The notes under the pieces were generated by a model. It made no database searches. It had not been told where the DNA came from and saw only the letters and a program-made list of their open reading frames with translations. The position numbers were made by a program, and so were the translations under genes. A stretch of 64,000 nucleotides of DNA from Rhina ancylostomus. Its lineage: Eukaryota. Positions 15,760-64,000 of this stretch are shown piece after piece (the first letter of the stretch is position 1; the number at the start of each line of letters is the position of its first letter). The stretch lies in NCBI GenBank assembly GCA_030265395.1, contig JARFYF010000056.1:19859636-19923635 (forward strand), given 5' to 3'.

Positions 15760-16592
15760 GAGGAAGCCAGGTTAAGTGGTTTGCTCTGGGATGGAATGAA
15801 GGGCTTTTGGATCAATGAGAGAGCCACAGTTGAGGAGTCATTCGAGGTGTTCCTTCACCAGGTGCTGCCTACCTTTCTATCCTTGATAAGCTCTCTTCCA
15901 TTCTTGCTTCTCAGCGGTGTGGACTCTTAGTTGTTTGGGGCTTAGGTTGTCTTGACAGTGCTGATGAATCTTTGTATGTTGTGGTTATCAGTAAGTTACT
16001 GGCTCTCCTGCAGTCTTTCCGTCTACCATCTGTTCTTTAGGACACGGGACTTTTGTTGGGCCATTGTTTTCAGTAACCTTTTTCTTTTCTTTTGAGCTAT
16101 GGAGGAGATTCCAATCCAGAAGTGTGCTGATAATTGTCTCCTGGATCTCCTCATCATTTTCATCAAATTACCTTTGGTGTCTTCTGGCAGAAATGGTAAG
16201 AGTCTCTTCATAGGTTTTAACTGTGGTTGCCTTCAGGACGATCTAGATGCTGTGGACACTCTGTGGCTTCTGCTGGTTAATGGTCATTAGGTTTGCCTGT
16301 AAGCTGGGATCCAAGAAAAGGTTTCCTCACAGGGTTCTTGAGACGTTTAACATTGATTTTTTTTGCCACAGTGTCTTTGTTCCTTCCTTTGTTTTAGGTT
16401 GATGGAGATAACAGAGAGAATAGGATAGTCAGTCCAACAGTCATCAATAGTTCTCATGGTGTGGTTGATATGGACATCCTTGCCAACTCTCACTCGCATG
16501 ATGGTGTAATCTTACAGGTGCCAGTGCCTGGATCAGAGATGTTGCCTTGGCGTCTTGTGGTTGCTAATGATAAGCCCTTGTTCCAAGCAATT
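15760..16592 (-). mobile_element. RTE-clade LINE fragment: endonuclease end and linker, inverted
   Basis: Minus-strand translation ...CLEQGLIISN...HL*SRHWHL*DYTIMR...DCWTD resembles RTE 'HPRSKHWHLIDY...CWTDH'. Contains stops. Confidence 0.7.
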
Positions 16593-16596
16593 NNNN

Positions 16597-17050
16597 GGAG
16601 GCCAGGTGTCATAAGTCATTGAGAAATGACAAGATCTTGGGAGTAGATATTATTGCTGAACTTGGCAGAGAGGAACTTCATGCACAAATTTACAGCTCCA
16701 TCTCCCACACCTTGAAAGAAAGATATACCAGACAACCGAGAGACATCATAATCATAATCATCTTCAAGAAAGGAGACAAATCCAATCAGAGTAACTACAG
16801 AGGAGTCATCTTGCCATCTGCCACAGGGCAACTCATTGCAAGGGTTCTCCTCAACTGCTTTTTACCACTAACTGAAAAGTTGCTCTCCGAATCAAAGTGT
16901 GGATTCCATATGACTTCCAAGAAAATTCCAGAGAGCAATATCAACCACTGTACATGGCTGTTGTAAAAGCCACTGACTCTGTAAATGGAGAGGGCCTGTG
17001 GAGCATCCTTCTCAAATGTGGATACCCTCAGAATAGTATTTCCATTTAGA
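16597..17050 (+). mobile_element. RTE-clade LINE fragment: start of reverse transcriptase
   Basis: IFKKGDKSNQSNYRGVILPSATGQLIARVLLN...LLSESKCGF is a degenerate 'KKGD...NYRGISLLS..GK..ARILLNR...LPESQCGFR'. Confidence 0.8.
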
Positions 17051-34059: not shown

Positions 34060-34900
34060 ATTGAATTTAATGCTTGTGGGAGGGGAGGTTCTGATTAAGT
34101 GAAGCCTGGCACCAGGGTGGAGTTTGTGCACGGTCTAGATGATGATGGAAGCTAAAGTACCGAAGATATGGACATGAGCTTCTGTAGGTGTGTGGGAGAG
34201 GTGAAGTGACACTGCAACGTAACTTGGCAATGGATGGAACCCGGGGCCTGAAATTCATAGTCAAACACTGCACTGAAGTTGCACAACATGCTGAGTTTCA
34301 AGGCAGGAAGAAGGGTGGACTGAAGGAAGGACAAGGAGATTGAAGGTGAGTGAAATCAGACTGAAGGTCTTGAGAAAAAGTATGTGCTGAGCAGGAGACA
34401 GGGTCGTCAGCCATCAAAAAGTCATAAAGGAGGCGAGCGTGTGTGTGTGGAAAGCAGGGGAGCAGGGCACGAGGAACAAAGATGAACAAGGGTCTGAGAT
34501 GGACACATATTGGAGGTCAAAGATAGAAGAGACACTTGTTAGGTTTTGATTTCTGACGTGGAGAGTGATGGATTGAACTCAAGATAAAGTTGTGATATTT
34601 GTTTGTTGAATATCTCCGATTAGTCCAACACTCCAGTTCAGACCACGATCATTCTTGAAAATGTCCCTCATGGTATGGGCAACTTTTGGACAGAGTTAAA
34701 GGGAGTTACAAGACATCCAATGGCAGAAAGGAAATTGTTATTCTTGGGGCAGCTTTAGCAAAGGAGATGTGGTGCTCCCATCTGCTCAGAACAACTACTG
34801 AGGCTGAGACCATGAAGAAGGGATGGTGACCAAGTGATCTGAGGGCAGAAGCCAACTACCTGAGGAGCTGTGAAAGGTTGAAGATGTTTTGTCAATGTCA
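34060..34900 (-). mobile_element. Degenerate L2-type LINE fragment
   Basis: Purine-rich + strand (ggtgtgtgggagagg, acttggcaatgg, ggcaggaagaagggtggactgaagg), typical of L2 endonuclease/linker on the reverse strand. No ORF. Confidence 0.35.
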
Positions 34901-35045
34901 GAACAAAAGCTTTACTGAGAAATGTTTACTACAATTCAATATTGGTATCCATCTCAAAAATGCACATATACATATCCAAATATAAAATTTATATAACAAT
35001 CACTGTTTACAGAAAATACATAGTTTTTCTTAGGAGTGGCAGCTT

Positions 35046-35074
35046 TTTATTTCATGGTTGATGGGAAATTTATT
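35046..35074 (-). terminator. Candidate AATAAA polyadenylation signals of the TOR1AIP-like gene
   Basis: tttatt on + at 35046-35051 and 35069-35074, about 550 nt downstream of the stop. Confidence 0.4.
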
Positions 35075-35619
35075 GTCGCCTTGAACAGATGTTTGATGCA
35101 GCTGCAAGAAATGGACAGGGGTGGAGTAGGGTTGAAGGAGGGTTGGGTAATGTGGCAATATTGGATATCATAAAGTTAAAGATGTGTGTTAGAATTGTCA
35201 TTTAGTGATAACATTCCTTATCTTTGAATGTGCTTTTACTATCCTTCTTGTGTTCACTGAGATTCAATTCAAATTGGTAAGGTAAGACAATATAAATTTT
35301 AAAATACACTCCAGGCAGCACAGATATCTGTCAATTCAGATATTCAGGGTCAGTATGAATGACAGATTCAGTTAACTGCAAGGAATGGCAAGGTTACAGT
35401 CCAACTTTAGTACAAGTGCTGCTCCACCAGATACTATTAACCCAGAGATCCTCCCTGCTCACAGTGCTGATCTTCACACCTTCTCTACACATTTGCTTGT
35501 CAACTGTTATCTGTTCACAATTTTGATTTTTGCCACATACTTCTTTCATTGTAATTTTCTTTCCCGTGTTCAATTATTGAGTAAAGCAAAAATGAAATCA
35601 ATCAGCAAGGTGACCGGCC

Positions 35620-36488
35620 TCAGCACAGAAAGCCACTTTCCAAGTGGTCCTCGGGATTCACTGTTACAACAGCGGTGTTTGGGATGTCTGTATTAATGGG
35701 TACTGTTTGGTTGAGATGATGTAAGACCTTGGCCATAATTCTCTGAGTGAAATTAGAAGGGAAAATCTCTTGCTTGGGCTCCACATTAACGGACCACACT
35801 GAGACGAGGGATGTTGGCACAGCTGTTGGCTCAGTGACTGGTTGCAGGCTCAGGGTCACAGTACAGGAGAGGTTCTTCACAATTTCTGCAATTATAATCT
35901 GAGAAGTGCCTGGTCTGGGAAAGGAACCAGCTTGTGACCAAAGAACCTGGCTGTAATCTCGCACTTCACTCATTCCATCTGGACTCAGATCACTGCCACT
36001 GATGAGCAATAAACTGGCAATAGTCTTGGAGAGGCAAAGCATTGTGTTCCATGAAACACCATATCCAACTCCAACTAACCGAGCTTGGAGAATCTCAGCA
36101 GGGTTAGTGGGAAGCTGATTGAAAATATTTTCCAGCGCTGCCCAGAAACTTTCTGATTGTCTTGGGAACAACAGCCTTAGCTTATGAAGCTTTTGGTTCA
36201 GTGAATATTGATGACTGAACTTTGGTGAGTCAGGGTGGAGGAGAAGAGGCCCATTCTGCTTGGAGCAAACCAATAAGATTGTGACAGCAACAAAAATAAA
36301 AGTTAAAACGGCAGCAAGTTTTAACGAAACAAAGAAGTCCGATTCCAGAGAGACTGCAGCAGTCGTCTCCTCTCTTGGTTCCAATTCGTACCCACGGGAA
36401 TTGTGATCAGCCCCAGGAAAACTATACCACTGAGCTGTGTCAGTATTTGCCATCTGTTCATTCAACGCATCCCTGATCGTGGTCTCAT
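35620..36488 (-). CDS. Terminal exon of a divergent Torsin-1A-interacting protein (LAP1/LULL1)-like type II membrane protein
   Basis: 869 nt uninterrupted frame after acceptor tttgtcacag|. Hydrophobic segment LAAVLTFIFVAVTILLVC at about 36318-36265. Luminal motifs LRLLFPRQSESFW (LULL1 LEDKFPGQSSFLW), TMLCLSKTIA (LULL1 TLKCLSHHVA, LAP1 ALRCLSEQIA) and C-terminal VVTVNPEDHLESGFLC (LAP1 VLPVQPENALKRGICL). Reference motifs are recalled, not searched. Confidence 0.75.
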
Positions 36489-36879
36489 CTGTGACAAACA
36501 TTAAAAAGAGTGTTTCATTTATTTAGCACTTTTTCTCGTAAAAAAAATCTCAAATCACTTCACATAAAATAAATACTGAAATTTAAACGAAGTGACAGAT
36601 CCACAGGGAAGGGTTTAGTTAGAGATACATTGTGCAGTACAGTAAAAAGACAACTTTAGTAACAGAGACAGGGGGCAGATACATTGTGTAGATGGAGTGA
36701 CATTCCAGTCACTGATACATGAAGCAGATATAGTAGATGCACAGCATCGCGTTTGGTTCATGATATGTGGGGCAGACGAGGAGAAAGAGCAGGCAAACAT
36801 GCGGAGGGATAAACAGGATCCTCTCTCCAACAAGAGTAAAAAACATTTGGCAGTTTACATGGCAAGCTTCATTAGAAAC

Positions 36880-37262
36880 TTATTAACTGATAGATTCCCC
36901 CGCAATATCTTTGGTGGAAGAGTAAACAAGCTTCCACCCTGGATGTTCTCTCTTCTCCTCCCTCCCATCGGGTAGAAGATACAAAAGCCTGAAAGCACAT
37001 AGCACTTGGCTCAAGGACAGTTTCTATCCCGCTGTTATAAGACTGGTACGATAAGATGGACTCTTGACCTCATAATCTATCTCGTCATGACCTTACAGCT
37101 TATTGTTTGCCTGCACTTTCTCTGTAACTGTAATACCTTATTCTGCATTCTGTTATGGTTTTACCTTGTACTACCTCAATGCAGTGTGTTATGAATTGAT
37201 CTGTACGAACGGTGTGCAAAACAAGGCTTTCACTGTTCCTCAGTGACAATACTAAACCAATT
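36880..37262 (+). mobile_element. LINE 3' tail (Rex1/Babar-like); copies at about 38905-39195 (+) and 24415-24515 (-)
   Basis: FSLLLPPIG*KIQKPESH..AQGQFLSR-like tail resembles Rex/Babar 'LLPSGRRYRS....T.RL..SF.P'. The 3'UTR gatggactcttgacctc...tttcactgtacctc.gtacaag.gacaataataaacc recurs three times in the window. Confidence 0.6.
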
Positions 37263-39608
37263 CCCATAACCATCAGGAACACCAACTCAAGCTGAAGGAT
37301 CACAATTCCACCTCCCCCCCCCCCACCCCAGCTGCACTCCTGAATGGCAGCACATTGGCACAGCTGATAGTCGCTGCCTCGCTGCTCCTGGTTATCCATC
37401 TGTATATTTACCTGCTCTGTTTGTCTCCTCATCCACCCCACATATCATGAACCAAACGCAATGCTGTGCATCTACTATACCTGCTTCAGGTGCTGACTGT
37501 GTGGAGTTTGCATGTTCTTCCTGTGACCGCGTGGTTTTCCATCAGGTGCTTCAGTTTCCTCCCGCATGACATGAGGGCTGGTTGGTTCATTGGCCACTAT
37601 AAGTTGCCCCTTGTGTGCAGATGAGTGGACAGTTGATGAGAATGTGGGAGAATAATAATGGGATTAATGCAGGATTAGTGTAAGTGGGTGGCTGATGGTT
37701 GTCATGGACCCGGTGGGCTGAAGGGCCTTTTTCTGTGATGTCTTTCTCTATAAACAATCATTATCATCAAACTCTGCTTCCTGAAGAGGTGTCTTCATCT
37801 CTTTCTGGAGAATCTACTGAGATCGGGGAATGTGGATAAAGCTGGTCACTTCTCATCAGGGGTGGCACAGTGCGTGTCGNNNNNNNNNNNNNNNNNNNNN
37901 NNNNNNNNNNNNNNNACCTTTGCATTTCTTGCCACTTTTCACATTCACATCATTTGCCTTCATTTAAAGAGGTTAGGTCACACAGTGACACCTAGTCAGC
38001 AGCCCGACACCAGCCTGTCCTCTGTGACCACATAATCTTCAGGCTGGATTTAATGTGGCTGCTCCCAAACCGACATCTCCACGATTTTACACCAGCCGGT
38101 TCAGCTGGTTATTGGTCAACTGCTGGATCTGGGTCAACTATCAGGAAAGGACTGCAGTCTGCGCTCCTCACCCTCTGGACATTGAAGAGCTGCATCCAGT
38201 GTGGAAACCCCTCAACCACCCAAAGTTTGTATCACCCCAGGAGGCATGAGTGTTGCTCTGAACACAAAAAGGTGCAGACACTACTGAGGCATAGAACTGC
38301 AAATGTGTAGATTGAACAACACAACCAACATAAAGAGCCATGTACTGTGATTTTTCTTTTGTATGTATACAGTTATTATGAATAACATTTGATTTTGAGG
38401 TAAATAAAACTATCAGCGACTCAGATTCGTAATGTGGAGCAAGGCAGTAAACGAGCTAAGTTTCCCCAGACGATTTTAATTCACCAATGGTGTCCATGGA
38501 AGTTTGGTAACTGTGACAGAGGTTTACAAACCAGAGGTCACAATCAATATACTGCAGGTTCCAGAAATCTGAACCAAAGATCGGAAACTCTGGGAATATC
38601 AGGCAATAACTGTGGAGGGAGAAACCAAATAGATATTTCAGCATTTTCCATGACTGTGATTGAGATGGAGAGTTTGCTAATTGTGATCACTGGTTTGCTT
38701 CTACTACCCATCAGCACTACAGTAACAATAAATGTACCAGCACATCTCTTTCTGTGGACGTGGGAGGAAGCTGAAGTACTGATGGTGACACGGAGGGTGT
38801 GGAAACTCCACATGGACACCCAAGGATGGGATCAAACCTTGGTCACGGGAACGCTGGTTTGGCCTCTGTGATCAGCTAATACAGTGGAGTTGTCATGTCA
38901 AGCTTATTGTCTTCTACCCCACTGTGATAAGACTATTGAATGGTTCTCTTATACAATGAGATGGACTCTGACCTCACTATCTACCTTGTTGTGACCTCGC
39001 ACCTTATTGCACTGCACTTTCTCTGTAGCTGCGACACTTTACTCTGTACTGTTATTGTTTTTACCTGTACTACATCAATGCACTCTGTACTAACCCGATG
39101 TAATTGCATCGTGAAATGAATTGACCTGTACGATCGGTATGCACGACAAATTTTTCACTGTACCTCAGTACAAGAGACAATAATAAACCAATACCAGTTA
39201 TGTCCACAAGAATGGTGAGGTACAGGTACAAAGACAAACTTGCTTGCAGCAGCATTACAGGCAAGTAGATTCAGACAACACACAGAACATAAATTATGCA
39301 GGAATCCCTTTGCCTCCACACATGCTGCTTGACCTGCTGAGTTCTTCCGGCAGCTTTTGTTTTGCTCCAGATTTCCAGCACCCACAGTCTCCACCGCAGA
39401 GAATCGTTGCGTTCAGCTTTGCCAAAGGTGAAAGTAAAACTGCGGCTGTGGAGCACGATGGTTTGGGGAGCGCAGAGGGCAGCACACAGCCGCCGTCCAC
39501 CCTCATTCCCAGCAGATTTTTGTCAAGCTTGTGCACTCGTCACAGCCTCCCGATCCAGGGCTGGGACCCTCCCTGCCCCGGCCGCCTCCCCGCCCTCTCT
39601 CCGCTCAC

Positions 39609-39771
39609 CTGGGTTACGGGACGCCGCCGGCGCCACTGGGCTGCGGTTAGCTGGTTGGGGCAACGGTCTGGCGTCGGCCACTCGCCCGCCGGTGCTCCCG
39701 GGCTCTGAGAATCGGGGCTTGAAGCCTCCGCCCGGGACAGGGCTCTGGGACTCGCCTCCGCTCTCCTCCAT
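39609..39771 (-). CDS. Putative exon 1 of TOR1AIP (LAP1/LULL1)-like gene (MEESGGESQSPVPGGGFKPRFSEPGS...ASRNP)
   Basis: gcgATGg Kozak context at 39771 in the CpG island, strong donor CCAG|GTGAGC at 39609/39608. 163 nt, phase 1, in frame with the acceptor at 36488. Confidence 0.65.
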
Positions 39772-39904
39772 CGCTGGAGCCGAACCAGTCGGTCCGGTTC
39801 CCGGGTGGGAGGGATCTGGCGGCGGGCGGTAACCCGGGAGATATCGGGCTTGGCTGCAGCTCAGCCAGTCCAGCCCGGTCCGGGAACACCCATCAATGTC
39901 CCCC

Positions 39905-40165
39905 AGCTGGGGAAGGAGGGGTCCCGGCGCCCACAGCCCGGTCCCCCGGGGTTCCTGGCGCCCACTGCTTGGTCCCGCAGGGGAGGGGTGGTCCCGGCGC
40001 CCACAACCCGGTCCCCGGGGTGGGGGGGGGGGAACGCAGCGGCAGCAAACAGCCCGGTCCCCCGGGGGGGGGGGGGACCTGGCGGCAGCCCACAGCCCGG
40101 TCCCCGGGGGGGGCACCCGGCAGCCCACAGCCCGGTCCGGGGGGGGGGCACCCGGCAGCCCACCG
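39905..40165 (+). repeat. GC-rich tandem repeat (ggcagcccacagcccggtcccc + G-run), about 6 copies
   Basis: Directly visible; G-runs of up to about 14 nt. Confidence 0.85.
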
Positions 40166-40244
40166 GCGCCGCGAAACGCGCTCCGGGTTTGCGTTGGGAA
40201 CAGAATCAACTCCCCAGCGGCGGGACCGACATCCGCGGCTAACC

Positions 40245-40254
40245 GCGCATGCGC
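40245..40254. promoter_or_regulatory. NRF1 binding motif GCGCATGCGC
   Basis: Perfect palindromic NRF1 consensus in the promoter of a nuclear-encoded mitochondrial gene. Confidence 0.7.
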
Positions 40255-40500
40255 CGCGCTGAAGCTCGGCCGGCACTGTCTGGGGCGCCCTGATGTTGAG
40301 GGCACCAATGCGCGGCGCCGTCATATCGAGATCAACCACACGCAAAACTGCTGGAGAAACTCAGCGGATCAGGTAGCCTCTACGGAGGGAAATGGACCGT
40401 CCACGTTTCGGGTCCGAGACCTTTCATCAGGACTGGGTTCAGCTCACCGAGATTGCGCTTGCGGCGCCATGATGGTGAGGACTAGAAGGCGTCCCCACCA

Positions 40501-40508
40501 TGACGTCA
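40501..40508. promoter_or_regulatory. CRE (CREB/ATF) palindrome TGACGTCA
   Basis: Perfect CRE about 65 nt upstream of the MRPS2 ATG. Confidence 0.65.
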
Positions 40509-40569
40509 GACAGAAACAACGTGTTTGTTCCGCTGATGTTCATAAAGTTTGTTGAAATTCAGGAGCTCC

Positions 40570-40594
40570 ATGGCGATGAGGTTTCTGCGGGGCG
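40570..40594 (+). CDS. MRPS2: Mitochondrial ribosomal protein S2 (uS2m), coding exon 1 (MAMRFLRG)
   Basis: ATG at 40570 (tccATGg) inside a CpG island, followed by a strong donor G|GTGAGT at 40594/40595. Phase 1 matches exon 2. Arg-rich start fits a mitochondrial presequence. Confidence 0.8.
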
Positions 40595-41254
40595 GTGAGT
40601 GGGAACCGAGCGGCGGGGAACCGGGGATTGGGGGGGGGGGTCAGGGAGTCGCTCGCCACCCATTGCCCCTGTTGTGCCGAGGCTCCCAGGGACTCGGTGC
40701 ACCGGTTGATCGAAGGTTCCCTCGGCCAAGCACCAGAAGGGCCAAACCCTGTCCTCGGACTTGCCGCAACTTAGGCCCAGCTCCGCCTCCCTCCCTGCCC
40801 GGGACCCGGCCCATCTGTCACCAGGGCCGGCCGTGTCCATGCAGCAGAAAATCTGCTGGTGGAACTGGAGGTCGAGCAGCCTCTGGGGGGGGGGGAATGG
40901 TCAACGTTTCGGGTCGAGACCCTGCACCAGACGCTGCTCGGCCTCCAGTTCCCCCAGCAGAGTGTTTGCTGCTCCACATTCCAGCATCTGCAGCCTTTGG
41001 CCATTGCCATTTCCCTCCTGTGTTCCCTGGGGTCACTGCCCTGGCCATGTCCCACCAGTCCTCTCCCCATGAGAGATCATCGACCTGACACAACTGTTTC
41101 TCTCTGACTTGCCGAGTATTTCAGCAATTTTTTTAATTTCAGATCTCCAGCACTAACATTAATTTTTGTTATTTTGCCTCGCTCTCACCTGATTATGGTT
41201 GAATGTCTCTTGTTTCACCTTATAATCTATGTATCTTCTCTCTGATTCTCTCAG

Positions 41255-44399: not shown

Positions 44400-45882
44400 G
44401 TAGGTGTTTGATGTTCATGGGCTTAAACTGCATAAACCAATGTGGCTGGTAAACCAGGAGTTGCTGAAGTGGGGATTGGTGGTAGGTTGGGAGAGTGGAA
44501 TAGGATGGTGTGAGAGGGACAGAGGCCAGTGTGAGGAAGGCGTTGGGGGACTAAGGTGAGCGACTCTCTGTGACCTTATCACATCAGAGCAATAAAACAC
44601 TTCAATAAGTGTGTTTCATATTGAAAGGCAGGTCAGTGCAGCCTGTTACTTAGGAACAGAAGGAGGAGTAATCAGCTGCTAGAGCCTATTATCCCCCCCT
44701 CGTTAGATTGTGGCTTATCTATACCTTAACTTCTTGAACCTACCTTGGTTTTATTAACTGTAATGCCTTTTGTCCAACAAAAATCTATCATTCGGTTTTG
44801 AAATTCTTGAGTGACTTCCTGCCATTCACCCACAATGCTTTTTGGGATAGAATTCCAGATTTCTGTCATCCTTTGTGTTGTGAAATGTTTCTGATCTTAG
44901 TATCTGAACACACTAGCTCTTAATTTCAAGGTCAGACTTCTGTCCTGGACTTGATCACTAGAGGAAATGGGTTTTCTCTCTCTCCATCTGCACAATTCCT
45001 TTTAATCATATTAAACTTGATTCAATCAAACCTTAATCTTTTATATTCAGCTAAGTACATCCCTCTGCAACTTCTCTCCATTACTTAATCCCTTTAGCCA
45101 GGATACTATTCTGATCAATCTGCACAGCATTCCTTCCAAAGGGAATGCATCTGTCTTGAGATGTAGTAATGAACTCTCTACTCTAAAAGGAGTATGTCCA
45201 GAGCTTTGTTACCTGTAATACAACTCATTTCTCCCCCTTTATTTTCCATTCTGCTTGAGGTGAAGCCTGAACATAGAAATCTAGCCAGCTGAGAGAAGTT
45301 GTCATATATCTAGGCCACATCAGAGGTAGTGTGTGGATTGCATTGAAATGTGTTGTTAAATAAATTGATTTTAAGCAAGGCCTTCAAGTGGAATTATGGA
45401 GAAGGAAAGCTTTCGGAAGGGAATTCCAGCATCTGAAACATGGCTCCCAGCGTGGGGTGATACTGTTCAGATGTTGGAACTTGTCCAGAGAGAGGAGGAA
45501 GTTTGCAAGATCACATGGCCTTGCATCTAGAGCTTATTAGGGAACCTATGGGATGCTGCACTTTTACACACAGCTGCTAATTTAGTTTTGTATGCTCAGA
45601 GTTTCTGGTTGGCACCCTGGTGTCAATAGCTGGAATGGAGAACGGTGAGGGTGCATGGACACAAATATTCTGTCCTCACTTGCTAAGGGAAGGTGTCTGG
45701 ACATGTATGCCATGTAGCCTCAGTGGGTGAGGTTATCTGGCCTCAACTTTCTAGGTGGGAGTGTTTGATGTCTGGATGATGGACTTGGCATTACTTATCA
45801 GCTGTGCCTTGGAGGGAGGCCACTCCAAGAGATGTGTCTTTGAAAAGAATGGGGATAATGGAAACACTTCCTCTCTCTTTAG

Positions 45883-46414
45883 GCTGATGGAACCATATCT
45901 TTTTGGCTGCCGTTTGGAGCAAGACATTATTGACTTGGACCAGTCTGTTCTTCACCTTCAGCAGGCGCTGAACTTCACTGCCCATTGTGCATATCGGAAA
46001 GGGATCATCCTGTTTGTAAGTCGAGCCCGTCAGTTTTCTCATCTGATAGAGAAAACGGCACAGGAGAGTGGAGAGTACACACACACCAGGTATTGGCAAG
46101 GTGGCCTACTGACCAATGCGCACATCCAATATGGCACTGGTGTTCGTCTGCCTGACCTCATCATCTTTGTCAACACCTTAAGCAATGTATTTGAACAGCA
46201 TATTGCTGTGCGAGATGCTGCCAAGATGAACATTCCAACGGTGGGGATAGTAGATAGTAACTGTAATCCAAGTCTCATCACTTACCCCATTCCAGGGAAT
46301 GATGACTCTCCCTCGGCCATTAAACTTTATTGTAAACTTTTTAAAATGACCATTCTCCGGGCAAAGGACAAAAGACGTCAAATGGACCTTCTGCATGGAC
46401 TCCAGAAAGAATGA
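45883..46414 (+). CDS. MRPS2: MRPS2 terminal coding exon (uS2 domain)
   Basis: Acceptor ctctctttag|G CTG ATG. Contains uS2 signatures [32 protein letters not shown] and YPIPGNDDS. Stop at 46412-46414. Spliced CDS is 804 nt = 267 aa. Confidence 0.97.
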
Positions 46415-52733: not shown

Positions 52734-53546
52734 TTAAGAATATTTGGTGTTAGAGATTTTTTTCCAAAGTAGTGTTTTGATGTTGTTTAACAGCAGTGAA
52801 TGATGTACCTCCATCTGGCTTGCTAAGCCATTCAGTGTCATGCAGGTTTGTAAGTGTTTCTGTAGTTCATCTCTGAAATCAGTGGGTGCCCCATACAGCA
52901 GATATTCCTGCAGTAAACCACAAATTTTGGCCAGATTTGGCTGTATCAGTTCAGTATTGCATTGCTTCACGAGTTTGTCACAAGTTGCCATGCAGTCCTT
53001 CCCGTGTGTGCAGTCTGTGTTGTGTTCACAATGACGCCCTTTATAGAAATCTTTAAGAGTCATTTCTGTTACCACCTTTCTGAGGTTAACCATTTTAAAA
53101 TCATATTTCTCATTGTAGCCAATGTTACCTGGGTCGGTGTCACAGATGTAAAAACTACCGTAAGTGCCGTGAAAAATCTCCTCCACAAATTCTAGGAGTC
53201 CAATGGTGATTTCTGCTCGCCTGGGCCATGCAGGAGCAAACCATCTGTTCAGACTTTTGTGCACCACTGAGGGCAAAACTGCCTCAAGGAAACGTGGCAT
53301 CTTGATGCTATAGAGGGAGTGGTATGGAATCTTCTCAGTGATGTACAAGTCCCCACAGAAGCCCAGCAACTGTGCTGTGTGTTCTTTCTCATGCAGAGAA
53401 ACTATCAATAAAAACTCATTGAGCTGAAGCAAAGCCCAGATAGACTTGGCTTCTGCTAAGGACACCTTCTTGTCCTGGTTAATATCAGCCATGCTGATTA
53501 TTCTGGTGACAAGGTTTCCAAGTGATTGTTGATCTCCAAGACTAGC
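52734..53546 (-). CDS. DIPK1B: DIPK1B terminal exon (EF-hand and kinase-like domain)
   Basis: Acceptor tttatttcag|. EF-hand-like ADINQDKKVSLAEAKS, LLGFCGDLY, PAWPRRA, and C-terminus LLWKKISNTKYS as in DIPK1B. Spliced total is 1296 nt = 431 aa. Confidence 0.97.
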   Translation of the reverse strand, partial: ASLGDQQSLGNLVTRIISMADINQDKKVSLAEAKSIWALLQLNEFLLIVSLHEKEHTAQLLGFCGDLYITEKIPYHSLYSIKMPRFLEAVLPSVVHKSLNRWFAPAWPRRAEITIGLLEFVEEIFHGTYGSFYICDTDPGNIGYNEKYDFKMVNLRKVVTEMTLKDFYKGRHCEHNTDCTHGKDCMATCDKLVKQCNTELIQPNLAKICGLLQEYLLYGAPTDFRDELQKHLQTCMTLNGLASQMEVHHSLLLNNIKTLLWKKISNTKYS

Positions 53547-54380
53547 CTGAAATAAAGTGAAAGCATTGTGATTGACAGCACTGCAGGAATACTAAATACA
53601 GTCTCAAAGTAAGAACAAGAACACTATAAGCACAGGTTTGTGTGAATCTTCTACACTAAGTGTCAGTTGGAGTTCAGTGAGGAGGAAATGTGGTGTAGAG
53701 GAGGAGAAAGGTGAAAAATAAACCAAGAGGTAATAGTGGATTGATAAGGGATTCTGGGGGAAGAGGTTCATAAGCTGTCTGTGGTTTAGAGCTGGTGAGT
53801 TGAAAGATGATGAATGAATTATGGTGTGAGTAGTGTTACCTGAAGGTCAGGTGTGAATGTATGTTATAGAAACCTTTTTCAGTCCTTGAATAAACTGTTT
53901 TTAAAATCATGGTTCTAGTATTTACAGTTGGGTATCAAGTAAAGGAAACATGGCACGTTTATGCTATAGGGGGAATGGTACGGGATCTTCTTAGTTATGT
54001 ACAAGTCTCCACAGAAACCCAGGATGGGTTTCAAGGATGCTGCAGAGGCAAGTGAGTGTTCCTGAAGCTCCCTCTTCACCTCCATTATTATTCAGGATCT
54101 GGTAAATGCCCCCCCCCCCCCATGACTGGCAGAGTGGCTAAAGATCCTGCCATTTATAAGAGGTGATATTCACTTCTGAGGAATTCCTTACAACTGAGAA
54201 GGATTCCAACAGGTGTGTCTTTCATAATCTACTGTTATCAAGTGGAGGGAATCTTTGGGCTTAAAATTTGATTTGTCTGAAACCAATTTGACTATCATGA
54301 CAGATCCAGAACCTGATTCAATCTGTCAGATTAGAGTTTCAGAATCAGAGACACTTGATGGGAAATTCTGTTAAACCAAC

Positions 54381-62099: not shown

Positions 62100-62770
62100 T
62101 GAGTCGCCCGGGGTAACGCTATTGATGCTGGATTTTGGGGGAAGAGGGGGTCGGCGATTCCCCAGCACCCCTCCCCGTCCCTTCCATCCCCTCCCCCGCG
62201 TTAAAAGCCCCGGGCTCCCGGGTACCTGCAGAGCCCTGGAGAACGGGCAGAAGACGACCAGATGGACCAACCTCCGGGCGCGTCTCATCCTCGGACCGGC
62301 CTCGCTGTCCGCACAACCCGGCACGGAACGACCACCCCCCCCCCCCGGACCTAGGAGCCGGGCGAAGCCACCGACCCCCCTCGCTGCAGCCCCGGACCTA
62401 GGCTGGCATCACCGCCTACCCTCGGGCAGCTATATGGCAGCGGCGNNNNNNNNNNNNNNNNNNNNNNNNNNNNNNNNNNNNNNNNNNNNNNNNNNNNNNN
62501 NNNNNNNNNNNNNNNNNNNNNNNNNNNNNNNNNNNNNNNNNNNNNNNNNNNNNNNNNNNNNNNNNNNNNNNNNNNNNNNNNNNNNNNNNNNNNNNNNNNN
62601 GGGGAGGAGGCGCGAATCCCGCCAGGGACCCGACCCACGGGGGACGGGAGCGGGAGGGTCCCGGCCACTGGGGATGCCGCCGACGGGAGTCTGGTCGGAT
62701 GGAGCAGCACCCGAGGGAATCGACCCGAGGGAATAGCAAGCACATCAGGAGCGAACTCGCCATGGAAAAT
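62100..62770 (-). promoter_or_regulatory. CpG island / promoter of DIPK1B (partly in a gap)
   Basis: GC- and CpG-rich sequence around the first coding exon; N-gap at 62446-62600. Confidence 0.8.
62226..62288 (-). CDS. DIPK1B: Divergent protein kinase domain 1B (FAM69B), coding exon 1 (MRRARRLVHLVVFCPFSRALQ)
   Basis: ATG at 62288 in a CpG island, donor CAG|GTACC. Nearly identical to the recalled human N-terminus [21 protein letters not shown]. Confidence 0.93.
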
Positions 62771-62799: not shown

Positions 62800-64000
62800 C
62801 CAGCAGGGATTCTCCTCAACAGGGAATCCTCTTTTTTTTATAATTCTCCCCAACAGGAATTCCGTCAGTATCAATATTATTAATCGGAATCCCATCATCA
62901 GCAGTTCCATTAGCAGAAATCCAATCATTAGGAATCTCCCCAACAGTAATCCCATTAATATGAATTCCATCAACAGGAATCTGATCAACAGGATTCCCAT
63001 CAGCAGGAATATCTCCAATAGGAATCCCATGAATACTGTTTTCATCAATCAGAATCCCATCAACCTGAGTTTCCTCAACAGAAATTCTAGCAACAGGAAT
63101 CCCACCAACAAGAATTGCCACAACAGGAATCTTATCAATAGGATTCTCATCAACAGGAATCATCTCCGTAACAGGAATCCCATCAACAGGATCCCTGTCA
63201 ACAGGAATTCCATCAACGCTGATCTCCCACTAGGAATACCACCAGCGGGAATCCCATGAATAGGAATCCCATTGGAATACATGTCTCCAGTAGGAATCTT
63301 AGAAACAGAAATCTGTCCAACAGGAATCCAATCAACATGAATCCCATTAGCACAATGCTCCCTAACAGGAATCTCACCAACAGGAATTACTCCAAGAGGA
63401 ATCCCATTGACAGAAATCTCAACAAAAGGAATCTTCCCAAGAGGAATCCTATCATCAGGAACCTCCATTCAGGAATACCATCAATAGGACTTTCATAAAC
63501 ATAAAAATCCCATCAACATCAATCCCATTCAGAAGAATGATGCCAACAGGAATCTCATCAACAGAAGTCTCTCCATCAAGAATTCCATAAACAGGAATCT
63601 CCCCAATAGGAATAAAATCAACAGGAATGGCACAATCAGGAACCACATCAACAAAAATATCCCCAAAAGGAAACCCACAAACAAGAATCACATCAACAGG
63701 AAACTCCACAACAGGTTTTTCATCAAAAGAAATCTCATCAATAGGCATCTCCCCACCAGGAATCCTATCAACAGGAATCTCCCCAACAGGAATACCAGCA
63801 GCAGGAATCTCATCAACAAGATCTCCCCTCTTGTTGGGGAGCAGGACTCTAATCAACATTGATCCTAATAACAGGAATCCTATTGGCAGGAATTCCATCT
63901 GTAGAAATCTCCCTAACAGGAATACCATCAACAGCAATCTTCTGAATTGCAATCCCAACAACAAGGGTCCCATTATCAAGAATCCCATTAAAAGTAATCT
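62800..64000 (+). repeat. 15-bp minisatellite AACAGGAATCCCATC, running to the window end
   Basis: Dozens of diverged units. Translates as NRNPI repeats on + and as DGIPV or MGFLL repeats on -. Confidence 0.92.

Follow-up and report, generated by a model that had tools for sequence, protein, structure and literature searches.

The 64,000-nucleotide stretch of Rhina ancylostomus DNA analysed here (the window) carries, on its minus strand, an intact gene for an undescribed third vertebrate paralogue of LAP1 and LULL1, a derived variant of that kind. The publications consulted recognize two Torsin cofactors in vertebrates, LAP1 and LULL1, and the main-text literature searched, mostly open-access papers, held no third paralogue. 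We give an even chance to the reading that this intact paralogue is a Torsin-independent, single-pass glycoprotein of the secretory pathway that acts through its membrane helix.

An open frame occupies 35620-36522 on the minus strand. The full product is 343 amino acids long and ends at a single stop codon; it is encoded by two coding exons, 39771-39609 and 36488-35620. The parts of the gene are as follows.

39609-39771, minus strand: coding part of exon 1 (163 nt), with the ATG at 39771 and a phase-1 GT donor
36489-39608, minus strand: single phase-1 intron, GT...AG, with donor and acceptor both read in the sequence
35620-36488, minus strand: coding part of exon 2, comprising the rest of the tail, the membrane helix, the entire luminal domain and the stop codon
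34898-35619, minus strand: 3′ untranslated region, with AATAAA at 35074 and 35051

Exon 1 sits in a CpG island and encodes residues 1-54, the start of an acidic and poorly conserved N-terminal tail. A first-pass annotation of this DNA had placed a LAP1/LULL1-like frame at 35620-36080. That frame is real, but the gene is larger, since those coordinates begin at residue 191.

Contigs from two sequencing runs of the same study, X1 and X2, reproduce the predicted gene structure. One 1,857-nt contig from X1 spans 39609-39886 and then joins straight to 36488-34898; X2 contains the identical join, and the contigs end on the 3′ side at 34898 and 34949, respectively. The exact skipping of the intron indicates a spliced transcript. 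Both runs derive from a related organism about 95% alike and can only be guessed to be RNA, so that the evidence for splicing is the structure of the contigs. The gene is intact, and in a related species the predicted intron is removed by splicing. Four of the eight listed runs were compared with the gene; among the pieces listed for the other two, X5 and X7, there was no intron-skipping contig, and no run confirmed as RNA by its record was listed as containing the gene.

Homology to LAP1 and LULL1

A word-based search identified seven proteins among 910 candidates, all from rays or sharks and 51 to 91% identical to the window protein. The closest, from Pristis (P0002), is 91% identical and likewise 343 amino acids long. 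An exhaustive search returned 13 proteins at E values up to 0.001, and two further searches yielded only turtles and a gecko as additions. Named members come from chimaera, bichir, sturgeon, lungfish, axolotl, caecilian, turtles, crocodilians, lizards and one snake; the window protein is 21 to 36% identical to the members from bony vertebrates. Bird, mammal, frog and teleost members were not listed by these searches, which were word based or limited by E value. Most members are labelled uncharacterized or hypothetical in the databases, and some bear the name of a neighbour or an unrelated name. One candidate, P0019, is a sugar transporter that matched through its hydrophobic repeats and was rejected.

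Alignment A5 (38 rows) comprises the window protein and 37 of 70 proteins; near-duplicates, short isoforms, fused gene models, RNF183-only proteins and the sugar transporter were left out. A thinned set of 19 rows was used to limit the weight of turtles and rays. In a 22-row tree, elasmobranchs, chondrichthyans, bichir with sturgeon, reptiles and squamates were strongly supported. Where it is supported the tree follows species groups and thus fits one orthologous gene. Alignment and tree together indicate a single orthologous family that extends from sharks to reptiles, and the cartilaginous-fish frame within which the gene was originally considered is too narrow, as the family reaches well beyond chondrichthyans.

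The relationship to LAP1 and LULL1 emerged at the level of the family. On its own, the window protein matched no Pfam family, no PDB sequence and nothing in the ESM Atlas, and an eight-row profile matched no PDB chain. A 19-row profile matched LAP1 at an E value of 3.4e-5 and LULL1 at 7e-4. With 37 rows, the profile matched LAP1 (4TVS_A) at 3.5e-7, aligning profile positions 102-304 with chain positions 9-230, which is the entire luminal domain, and LULL1 (5J1S_B) at 2e-4. The Pfam family LAP1_C (PF05609) was matched at E values up to 10 by 5 of 19 members, the best at 19.5 bits; none of them reached the gathering cut-off of 26.8 bits, and the window protein was unmatched.

Structural comparison gave the same first match. 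Two AlphaFold models were made, one of the ray luminal domain (moderate confidence, pLDDT 63, pTM 0.65) and one of a full-length turtle protein (blocks of ten residues in the luminal part mostly at 70-91); they were built on 25 and 38 rows, most of them common to both. Among 48,161 chains, LULL1 ranked first for the ray model (Z 7.6, rmsd 4.8, 150 residues aligned) and for the turtle model (Z 6.5, rmsd 5.3, 149 aligned). Z values this low, below 8 in both cases, could mean a mere common arrangement, and the claim of homology is therefore carried by the sequence match. Neither LAP1 nor LULL1 was among the matches listed by Foldseek against the PDB; its strand-rich matches, and matches in a viral library, were rejected as relatives (TM-scores of about 0.3 or less). 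These results show that the luminal domain is homologous to the LAP1/LULL1 activator domain. The description of the product as LAP1/LULL1-like, made from the ray sequence, thus holds for the family.

Like LULL1 (TOR1AIP2; PDB 5J1S chain B), the window protein has a single membrane helix, an acidic N-terminal tail, the disulfide cysteines and a luminal AAA+-like domain without a Walker A motif, and LULL1 is the best structural match of both models. It differs from LULL1 in that the R449 equivalent and the R276, R412, E415, E416 and R419 sites are lost; the structural match covers about 150 of 235 residues, with an rmsd of 4.8-5.3, and helices alpha2, alpha3 and alpha5 are predicted to be absent. 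With LAP1 (TOR1AIP1; PDB 4TVS; PF05609) it shares a collinear profile match over the luminal domain and the equivalents of C424 and C582, but it lacks those of R563 and C496 and has a short acidic tail where LAP1 has a long basic nucleoplasmic domain. AAA+ domains of the ClpA/ClpB D2 type were the next structural matches of the ray model (Z 5.2 and 5.0), because they share their core with LAP1 and LULL1; the window protein differs from them in having neither Walker A nor the C-terminal small domain, and in being membrane anchored and luminal. The Walker A consensus is GxxxxGKT/S. In the window protein the loop that follows the first strand is GVGYGVSW, and GK occurs there in 0 of 38 rows, unlike in an active ATPase.

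Arginine finger, Torsin-contact sites and predicted luminal fold

The features of the protein discussed below are the following.

36268-36342, minus strand: S104-D105 and the single predicted membrane helix (about residues 109-128)
35623-36228, minus strand: luminal domain derived from LAP1/LULL1 (residues 142-343), predicted to be remodelled
36142-36168, minus strand: FPxQxxxxW at the junction of alpha(-1) and alpha0, invariant
36034-36036, minus strand: C206, the 'CLS' cysteine, equivalent to LAP1 C424 and LULL1 C310; Cys in 35 of 38 rows
35827-35868, minus strand: site of LAP1 alpha3 and YCDHEN (residues 262-275), a predicted strand plus QPVTEP
35710-35757, minus strand: helix alpha4 (residues 299-314), with the sequon N300-F-T at the R412 site and R304 at the E416 site
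35677-35712, minus strand: site of the finger helix (residues 314-325), a short loop with the sequon N314
35623-35625, minus strand: C343, the terminal cysteine, equivalent to LAP1 C582; Cys in 37 of 38 rows

The first-pass annotation had proposed that the disulfide cysteines are kept while the arginine finger and the CDHENA motif are missing, and all of this was borne out. C206 and C343 are both present, and both cysteines occur in 34 of 38 rows, the alpha1 cysteine (C206) being missing in bichir and sturgeon (3 of 38); the C206-C343 bond itself is predicted. The profile places LAP1 R563 opposite I323/P324 in the window protein. The segment HHLNQTVPINTDIPNTAVVTVNPE corresponds to residues 311-334 (35721-35650, minus strand), and residues 305-343 contain no arginine. 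At the YCDHEN position the window protein has QPVTEP (270-275), the C496 equivalent is absent, and Cys is found at the C496 column in 3 of 38 rows.

The last arginine of the protein is R304, in FTQRI (35742-35740). The shark RILHHL resembles the LAP1 finger segment, and the FTQRI arginine was considered as a shifted finger and rejected. R304 lies inside the model helix 299-314, which the profile aligns with LAP1 alpha4; by this alignment it maps one helix earlier than the finger. Turtles have the alpha4 helix plus a finger relic downstream of it, which fixes the register of alpha4 and finger. R304 stands at the LULL1 E416 site, so it represents a charge reversal on alpha4 and not a finger.

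Loss of the finger is not family-wide. An arginine near the finger site was found in 0 of 16 chondrichthyan rows and in 11 of 22 other rows (11 of 38 overall; 4 of 19 in the thinned set). The 11 comprise eight turtle rows, two crocodilian rows and one squamate-like row, and the arginine lies 10 residues before the final Glu. In turtles, PDKLWATARS, past alpha4 and just before the last strand, matches the LAP1 finger-helix segment and is a relic of that helix. Green turtle rows have Lys in place of the arginine, and amphibians, lungfish, most squamates and all fishes lack it; in true activators R563 is strictly conserved (PMC4358337). Axolotl has YCSHDG at the YCDHEN site. Given the turtle relic and this axolotl motif, the ancestor probably had both motifs, and lineages lost them separately.

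In LULL1, the TorsinA interface is formed by helices alpha0, 2, 4 and 5, with contact residues R276, K283, E385, R412, E415, E416 and R419 (PMC4999309). LULL1 numbering was derived from the LAP1 chain (R563 - R449 = 114 residues). Since the fold tools yield ranges and not residue pairs, the mapping of the contact sites rests on sequence alignment; anchored on the conserved L310, residues N300, Q303, R304 and A307 occupy the LULL1 R412, E415, E416 and R419 sites. The R276 site, two residues after the W of FPxQxxxxW, is Ala in the window protein and Arg in 0 of 38 rows. The K283 site is Lys in one row and Arg in six. The E385 site is still acidic in 27 of 38 rows. At the R412 site, Arg or Lys occurs in 1 of 38 rows and an N-x-S/T sequon in 24 (10 of the 19 thinned rows); in four shark rows a four-residue shortening of alpha4 leaves the register of the sequon unsure. 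The E415 site is acidic in 0 rows and the E416 site in 3, and the R419 site is Arg or Lys in 1 of 38. Three of the four named interface helices are recharged or, like alpha2 and the finger helix, missing from both models. Removal of the salt bridge between TorsinA E303 and LULL1 R276 still allows binding (PMC4999309), so single lost charges are weak evidence. Taken together, the alignments suggest that Torsin binding has been lost.

Five parallel strands surrounded by ten helices make up LAP1 (PMC4358337). Both models of the new family retain alpha(-1), alpha0, beta1, alpha1, beta2, beta3, beta4, alpha4, the last strand and the terminal helix; both are without alpha2 and the finger helix (alpha5) and have a strand at the alpha3 site. 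In the turtle model, the retained arginine begins the last strand and there is no finger helix. The sequences are in keeping with these predictions. The alpha2 site spans 15-21 residues, with at least two Pro or Gly in 17 of 19 rows, and at the alpha3 site the hydrophobic moment of the family is 1.23 at 170 degrees versus 0.49 at 100, an alternation typical of a strand; for alpha0, alpha1 and alpha4 the moment peaks at 100 degrees. The luminal fold is therefore predicted to lack alpha2 and the finger helix and to have alpha3 turned into a strand. The first-pass view that the fold is kept is not supported by the models, in which three LAP1 helices are missing and the match to LULL1 covers about 150 residues at rmsd 4.8-5.3.

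The membrane helix and competing explanations

Hydropathy analysis gave a lone hydrophobic helix at about residues 109-128; the turtle model has a helix at 68-92. Type II topology is predicted from homology and from the sequons and cysteines C-terminal of the helix. Three luminal sequons (N260, N300 and N314) predict N-glycans in the window protein. The tail had a pI of 4.1-5.2 in all 19 proteins examined, unlike the basic nucleoplasmic domain that characterizes LAP1. The LAP1 domain has a pI of about 8.5-10, and LULL1 is more acidic (PMC4999309). Because the tail is acidic, as in LULL1, the protein would reside in the ER rather than in the inner nuclear membrane.

Thirteen columns are invariant among the 19 thinned rows, and nine of them (S104, D105, S109, L112, A113, L116, F120, V123 and L127) fall in the juxtamembrane segment and membrane helix. 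Within the helix, S109, L112, A113, L116, F120, V123 and L127 form a stripe with a 4-3 repeat on one face, and the conservation moment peaks at 100 degrees (permutation p 2.5e-4). Mean pairwise column identity over the 19 rows is 0.59 for the juxtamembrane segment and 0.50 for the membrane helix, whose conservation may be inflated because the homologue search scores it. The corresponding values are 0.39-0.44 for alpha(-1)/alpha0, beta1-alpha1 and the C-terminal end, and 0.14-0.24 elsewhere, with 0.23 for alpha4 and 0.14 for the finger site. In a single-pass protein, a one-sided invariant stripe usually indicates that the helix packs against that of a conserved partner.

In our preferred reading, the membrane helix would be the working part of the protein and the luminal domain a stable, glycosylated module. 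The invariant face of the helix would pack against a conserved membrane partner or against a second copy of the protein itself. Torsins would not be needed, the arginine finger and most contact residues being lost. A Torsin-independent membrane protein had been the last alternative offered by the first-pass annotation, and it is favoured by the lost contact charges and the invariant membrane helix. Because the protein departs from the activator family in three of its defining tests and would work unlike an activator, we file it as a derived paralogue.

The main proposal of that annotation, a competitive inhibitor or scaffold for Torsins, is weakened: the finger is indeed lost, but the contact residues are mostly gone and one of their sites carries a sequon. 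Such a pseudo-activator would dock on the activator face of Torsin without the arginine, cap the ATP-bound enzyme and compete with LAP1 and LULL1. The absence of the finger from all 16 chondrichthyan rows fits this idea, as does retention of the alpha0 motif FPxQxxxxW, of both cysteines (34 of 38 rows) and of the acidic E385 site (27 of 38). LAP1 R563A and LULL1 R449A were assayed in complex with TorsinA, with reduced activity (PMC4358337), and Torsin oligomers are controlled by cofactor binding (PMC5638581), so that a non-activating cap would have an effect. However, a competitor should conserve its binding face, and alpha4 (0.23) and the finger site (0.14) are among the least conserved parts; the charges of alpha4 are lost or reversed, 24 of 38 rows have a sequon at its R412 site, and neither model contains alpha2. 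We regard this explanation as distinctly unlikely. A more elaborate version is a long shot: a third jawed-vertebrate cofactor would brake Torsin by capping its ATP-bound form without hydrolysis, with a finger tuned by lineage (present in turtles and crocodilians, deleted in sharks and rays), a specific ER partner tied through the invariant helix and an AAA+-derived domain in which a strand has taken the place of helices. Weak or paralogue-specific activation, in which a co-evolved surface serves one Torsin and turtles and crocodilians use the arginine while others act weakly without it, would account for the turtle PDKLWATARS and the axolotl YCSHDG. It is very unlikely, given that an arginine strictly conserved in true activators (PMC4358337) is Lys in green turtle and absent from amphibians, lungfish, most squamates and all fishes, and that in the turtle model it stands at the start of the last strand without a finger helix.

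Two further explanations leave Torsins aside. If the luminal domain were the working part, its strand-rich surface might bind a luminal or extracellular ligand, and the stripe would serve location or dimerisation only. The predicted antiparallel meander, the three luminal sequons of the window protein and the preference of Foldseek for strand-rich folds such as DcrB (E 6e-4, TM 0.17-0.28) over LAP1 all point this way, but the remodelled region is poorly conserved (0.18-0.24), and the Foldseek matches, whose TM-scores are low and whose rmsd is at least about 7, do not name a ligand. We consider a luminal role of this kind unlikely. The gene might also be a redundant duplicate under relaxed selection and heading for loss, which would suit its fast evolution (21-36% identity to bony-vertebrate members), the lack of bird, mammal, frog and teleost members among those listed, and the loss of the alpha1 cysteine from the bichir and sturgeon rows (3 of 38). 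Gecko models (Eublepharis P0041 and P0054) stop before alpha4, without the last strand and terminal cysteine, through either truncation or model error, and of the 8 coding differences among the rows listed for X1, 5 alter an amino acid. Against decay, the gene has an open, spliced frame, and 12 alignment columns are identical in all 38 rows, from sharks to reptiles. In run X7, moreover, exon 2 and the 3′ region differ at 25 of 1,248 bases versus 82 of 1,828 in five intron pieces (Fisher p 1.8e-4); the X7 piece, 34800-36047, is mostly 3′ region plus 428 coding bases, and two exon 1/promoter pieces were left out. Decay is highly improbable, and the choice between selection and decay that had been raised for this gene falls on the side of an open, spliced frame whose exon 2 and 3′ region diverge less than the intron.

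The family has been hidden below the Pfam threshold and labelled uncharacterized, or mislabelled, in databases. It provides a natural series from a retained finger relic (turtles) to deletion (rays) with which an activator domain without catalysis can be probed. If the models hold, an AAA+-derived fold with a helix-to-strand conversion is traceable within vertebrates. Should the protein bind Torsin, the enzyme that is mutated in DYT1 dystonia would have an endogenous antagonist; because no mammalian member was found, direct medical relevance is limited.

Genomic neighbourhood and origin

A CpG island covers the start of the gene; about 800 bases away lies a probable first exon of MRPS2, in head-to-head orientation. 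The island (39609-40600) is common to the gene and to this putative exon (ATG at 40570, plus strand), and is likely a bidirectional promoter. GC-rich tandem units of 31-43 bases occur at 39918-40163. Two last exons mark the neighbouring genes, which converge.

45755-46411, plus strand: last exon of the ribosomal S2 gene (MRPS2)
52737-53591, minus strand: last exon of a FAM69/DIPK1 kinase-like gene

Fused gene models point to further neighbours in other species. In Acipenser sinensis, model P0036 places a TPR-GoLoco protein ahead of the frame of the sturgeon orthologue. In Podarcis, the lizard orthologues P0024, P0025 and P0026 are annotated as isoforms of the E3 ligase RNF183, and one model fuses both frames; this is probably an annotation merge of adjacent genes, a read-through product being the lesser possibility. 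The TPR-GoLoco gene in sturgeon and RNF183 in lizard therefore adjoin the orthologue there. We take the FAM69 gene to be DIPK1B and the TPR-GoLoco gene to be GPSM1; MRPS2, DIPK1B, GPSM1 and RNF183 presumably all lie at human 9q32-34. TOR1AIP1 and TOR1AIP2 lie at 1q25.2-25.3 (PMC6168733), and 9q33-q34 is paralogous to 1q21-q25 (PMC1309616). These positions fit an origin of the gene in an early vertebrate genome duplication.

Among 145 stop-to-stop frames of at least 62 amino acids in window positions 1-34800, none matched Pfam; short exons would escape such a search. A frame fragment at 16574-16966 (plus strand) resembles, as judged by eye, a LINE reverse transcriptase remnant. The intron of the gene contains high-copy interspersed repeats at 36900-37750 and 38900-39400, two of them related to one another. 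At 62886-63818, a 15-base unit repeated about 62 times in degenerate form creates long open frames on both strands; two minus-strand frames tested there had no Pfam match. This repeat is probably a satellite, adjoining a CpG island at about 62100-62750.
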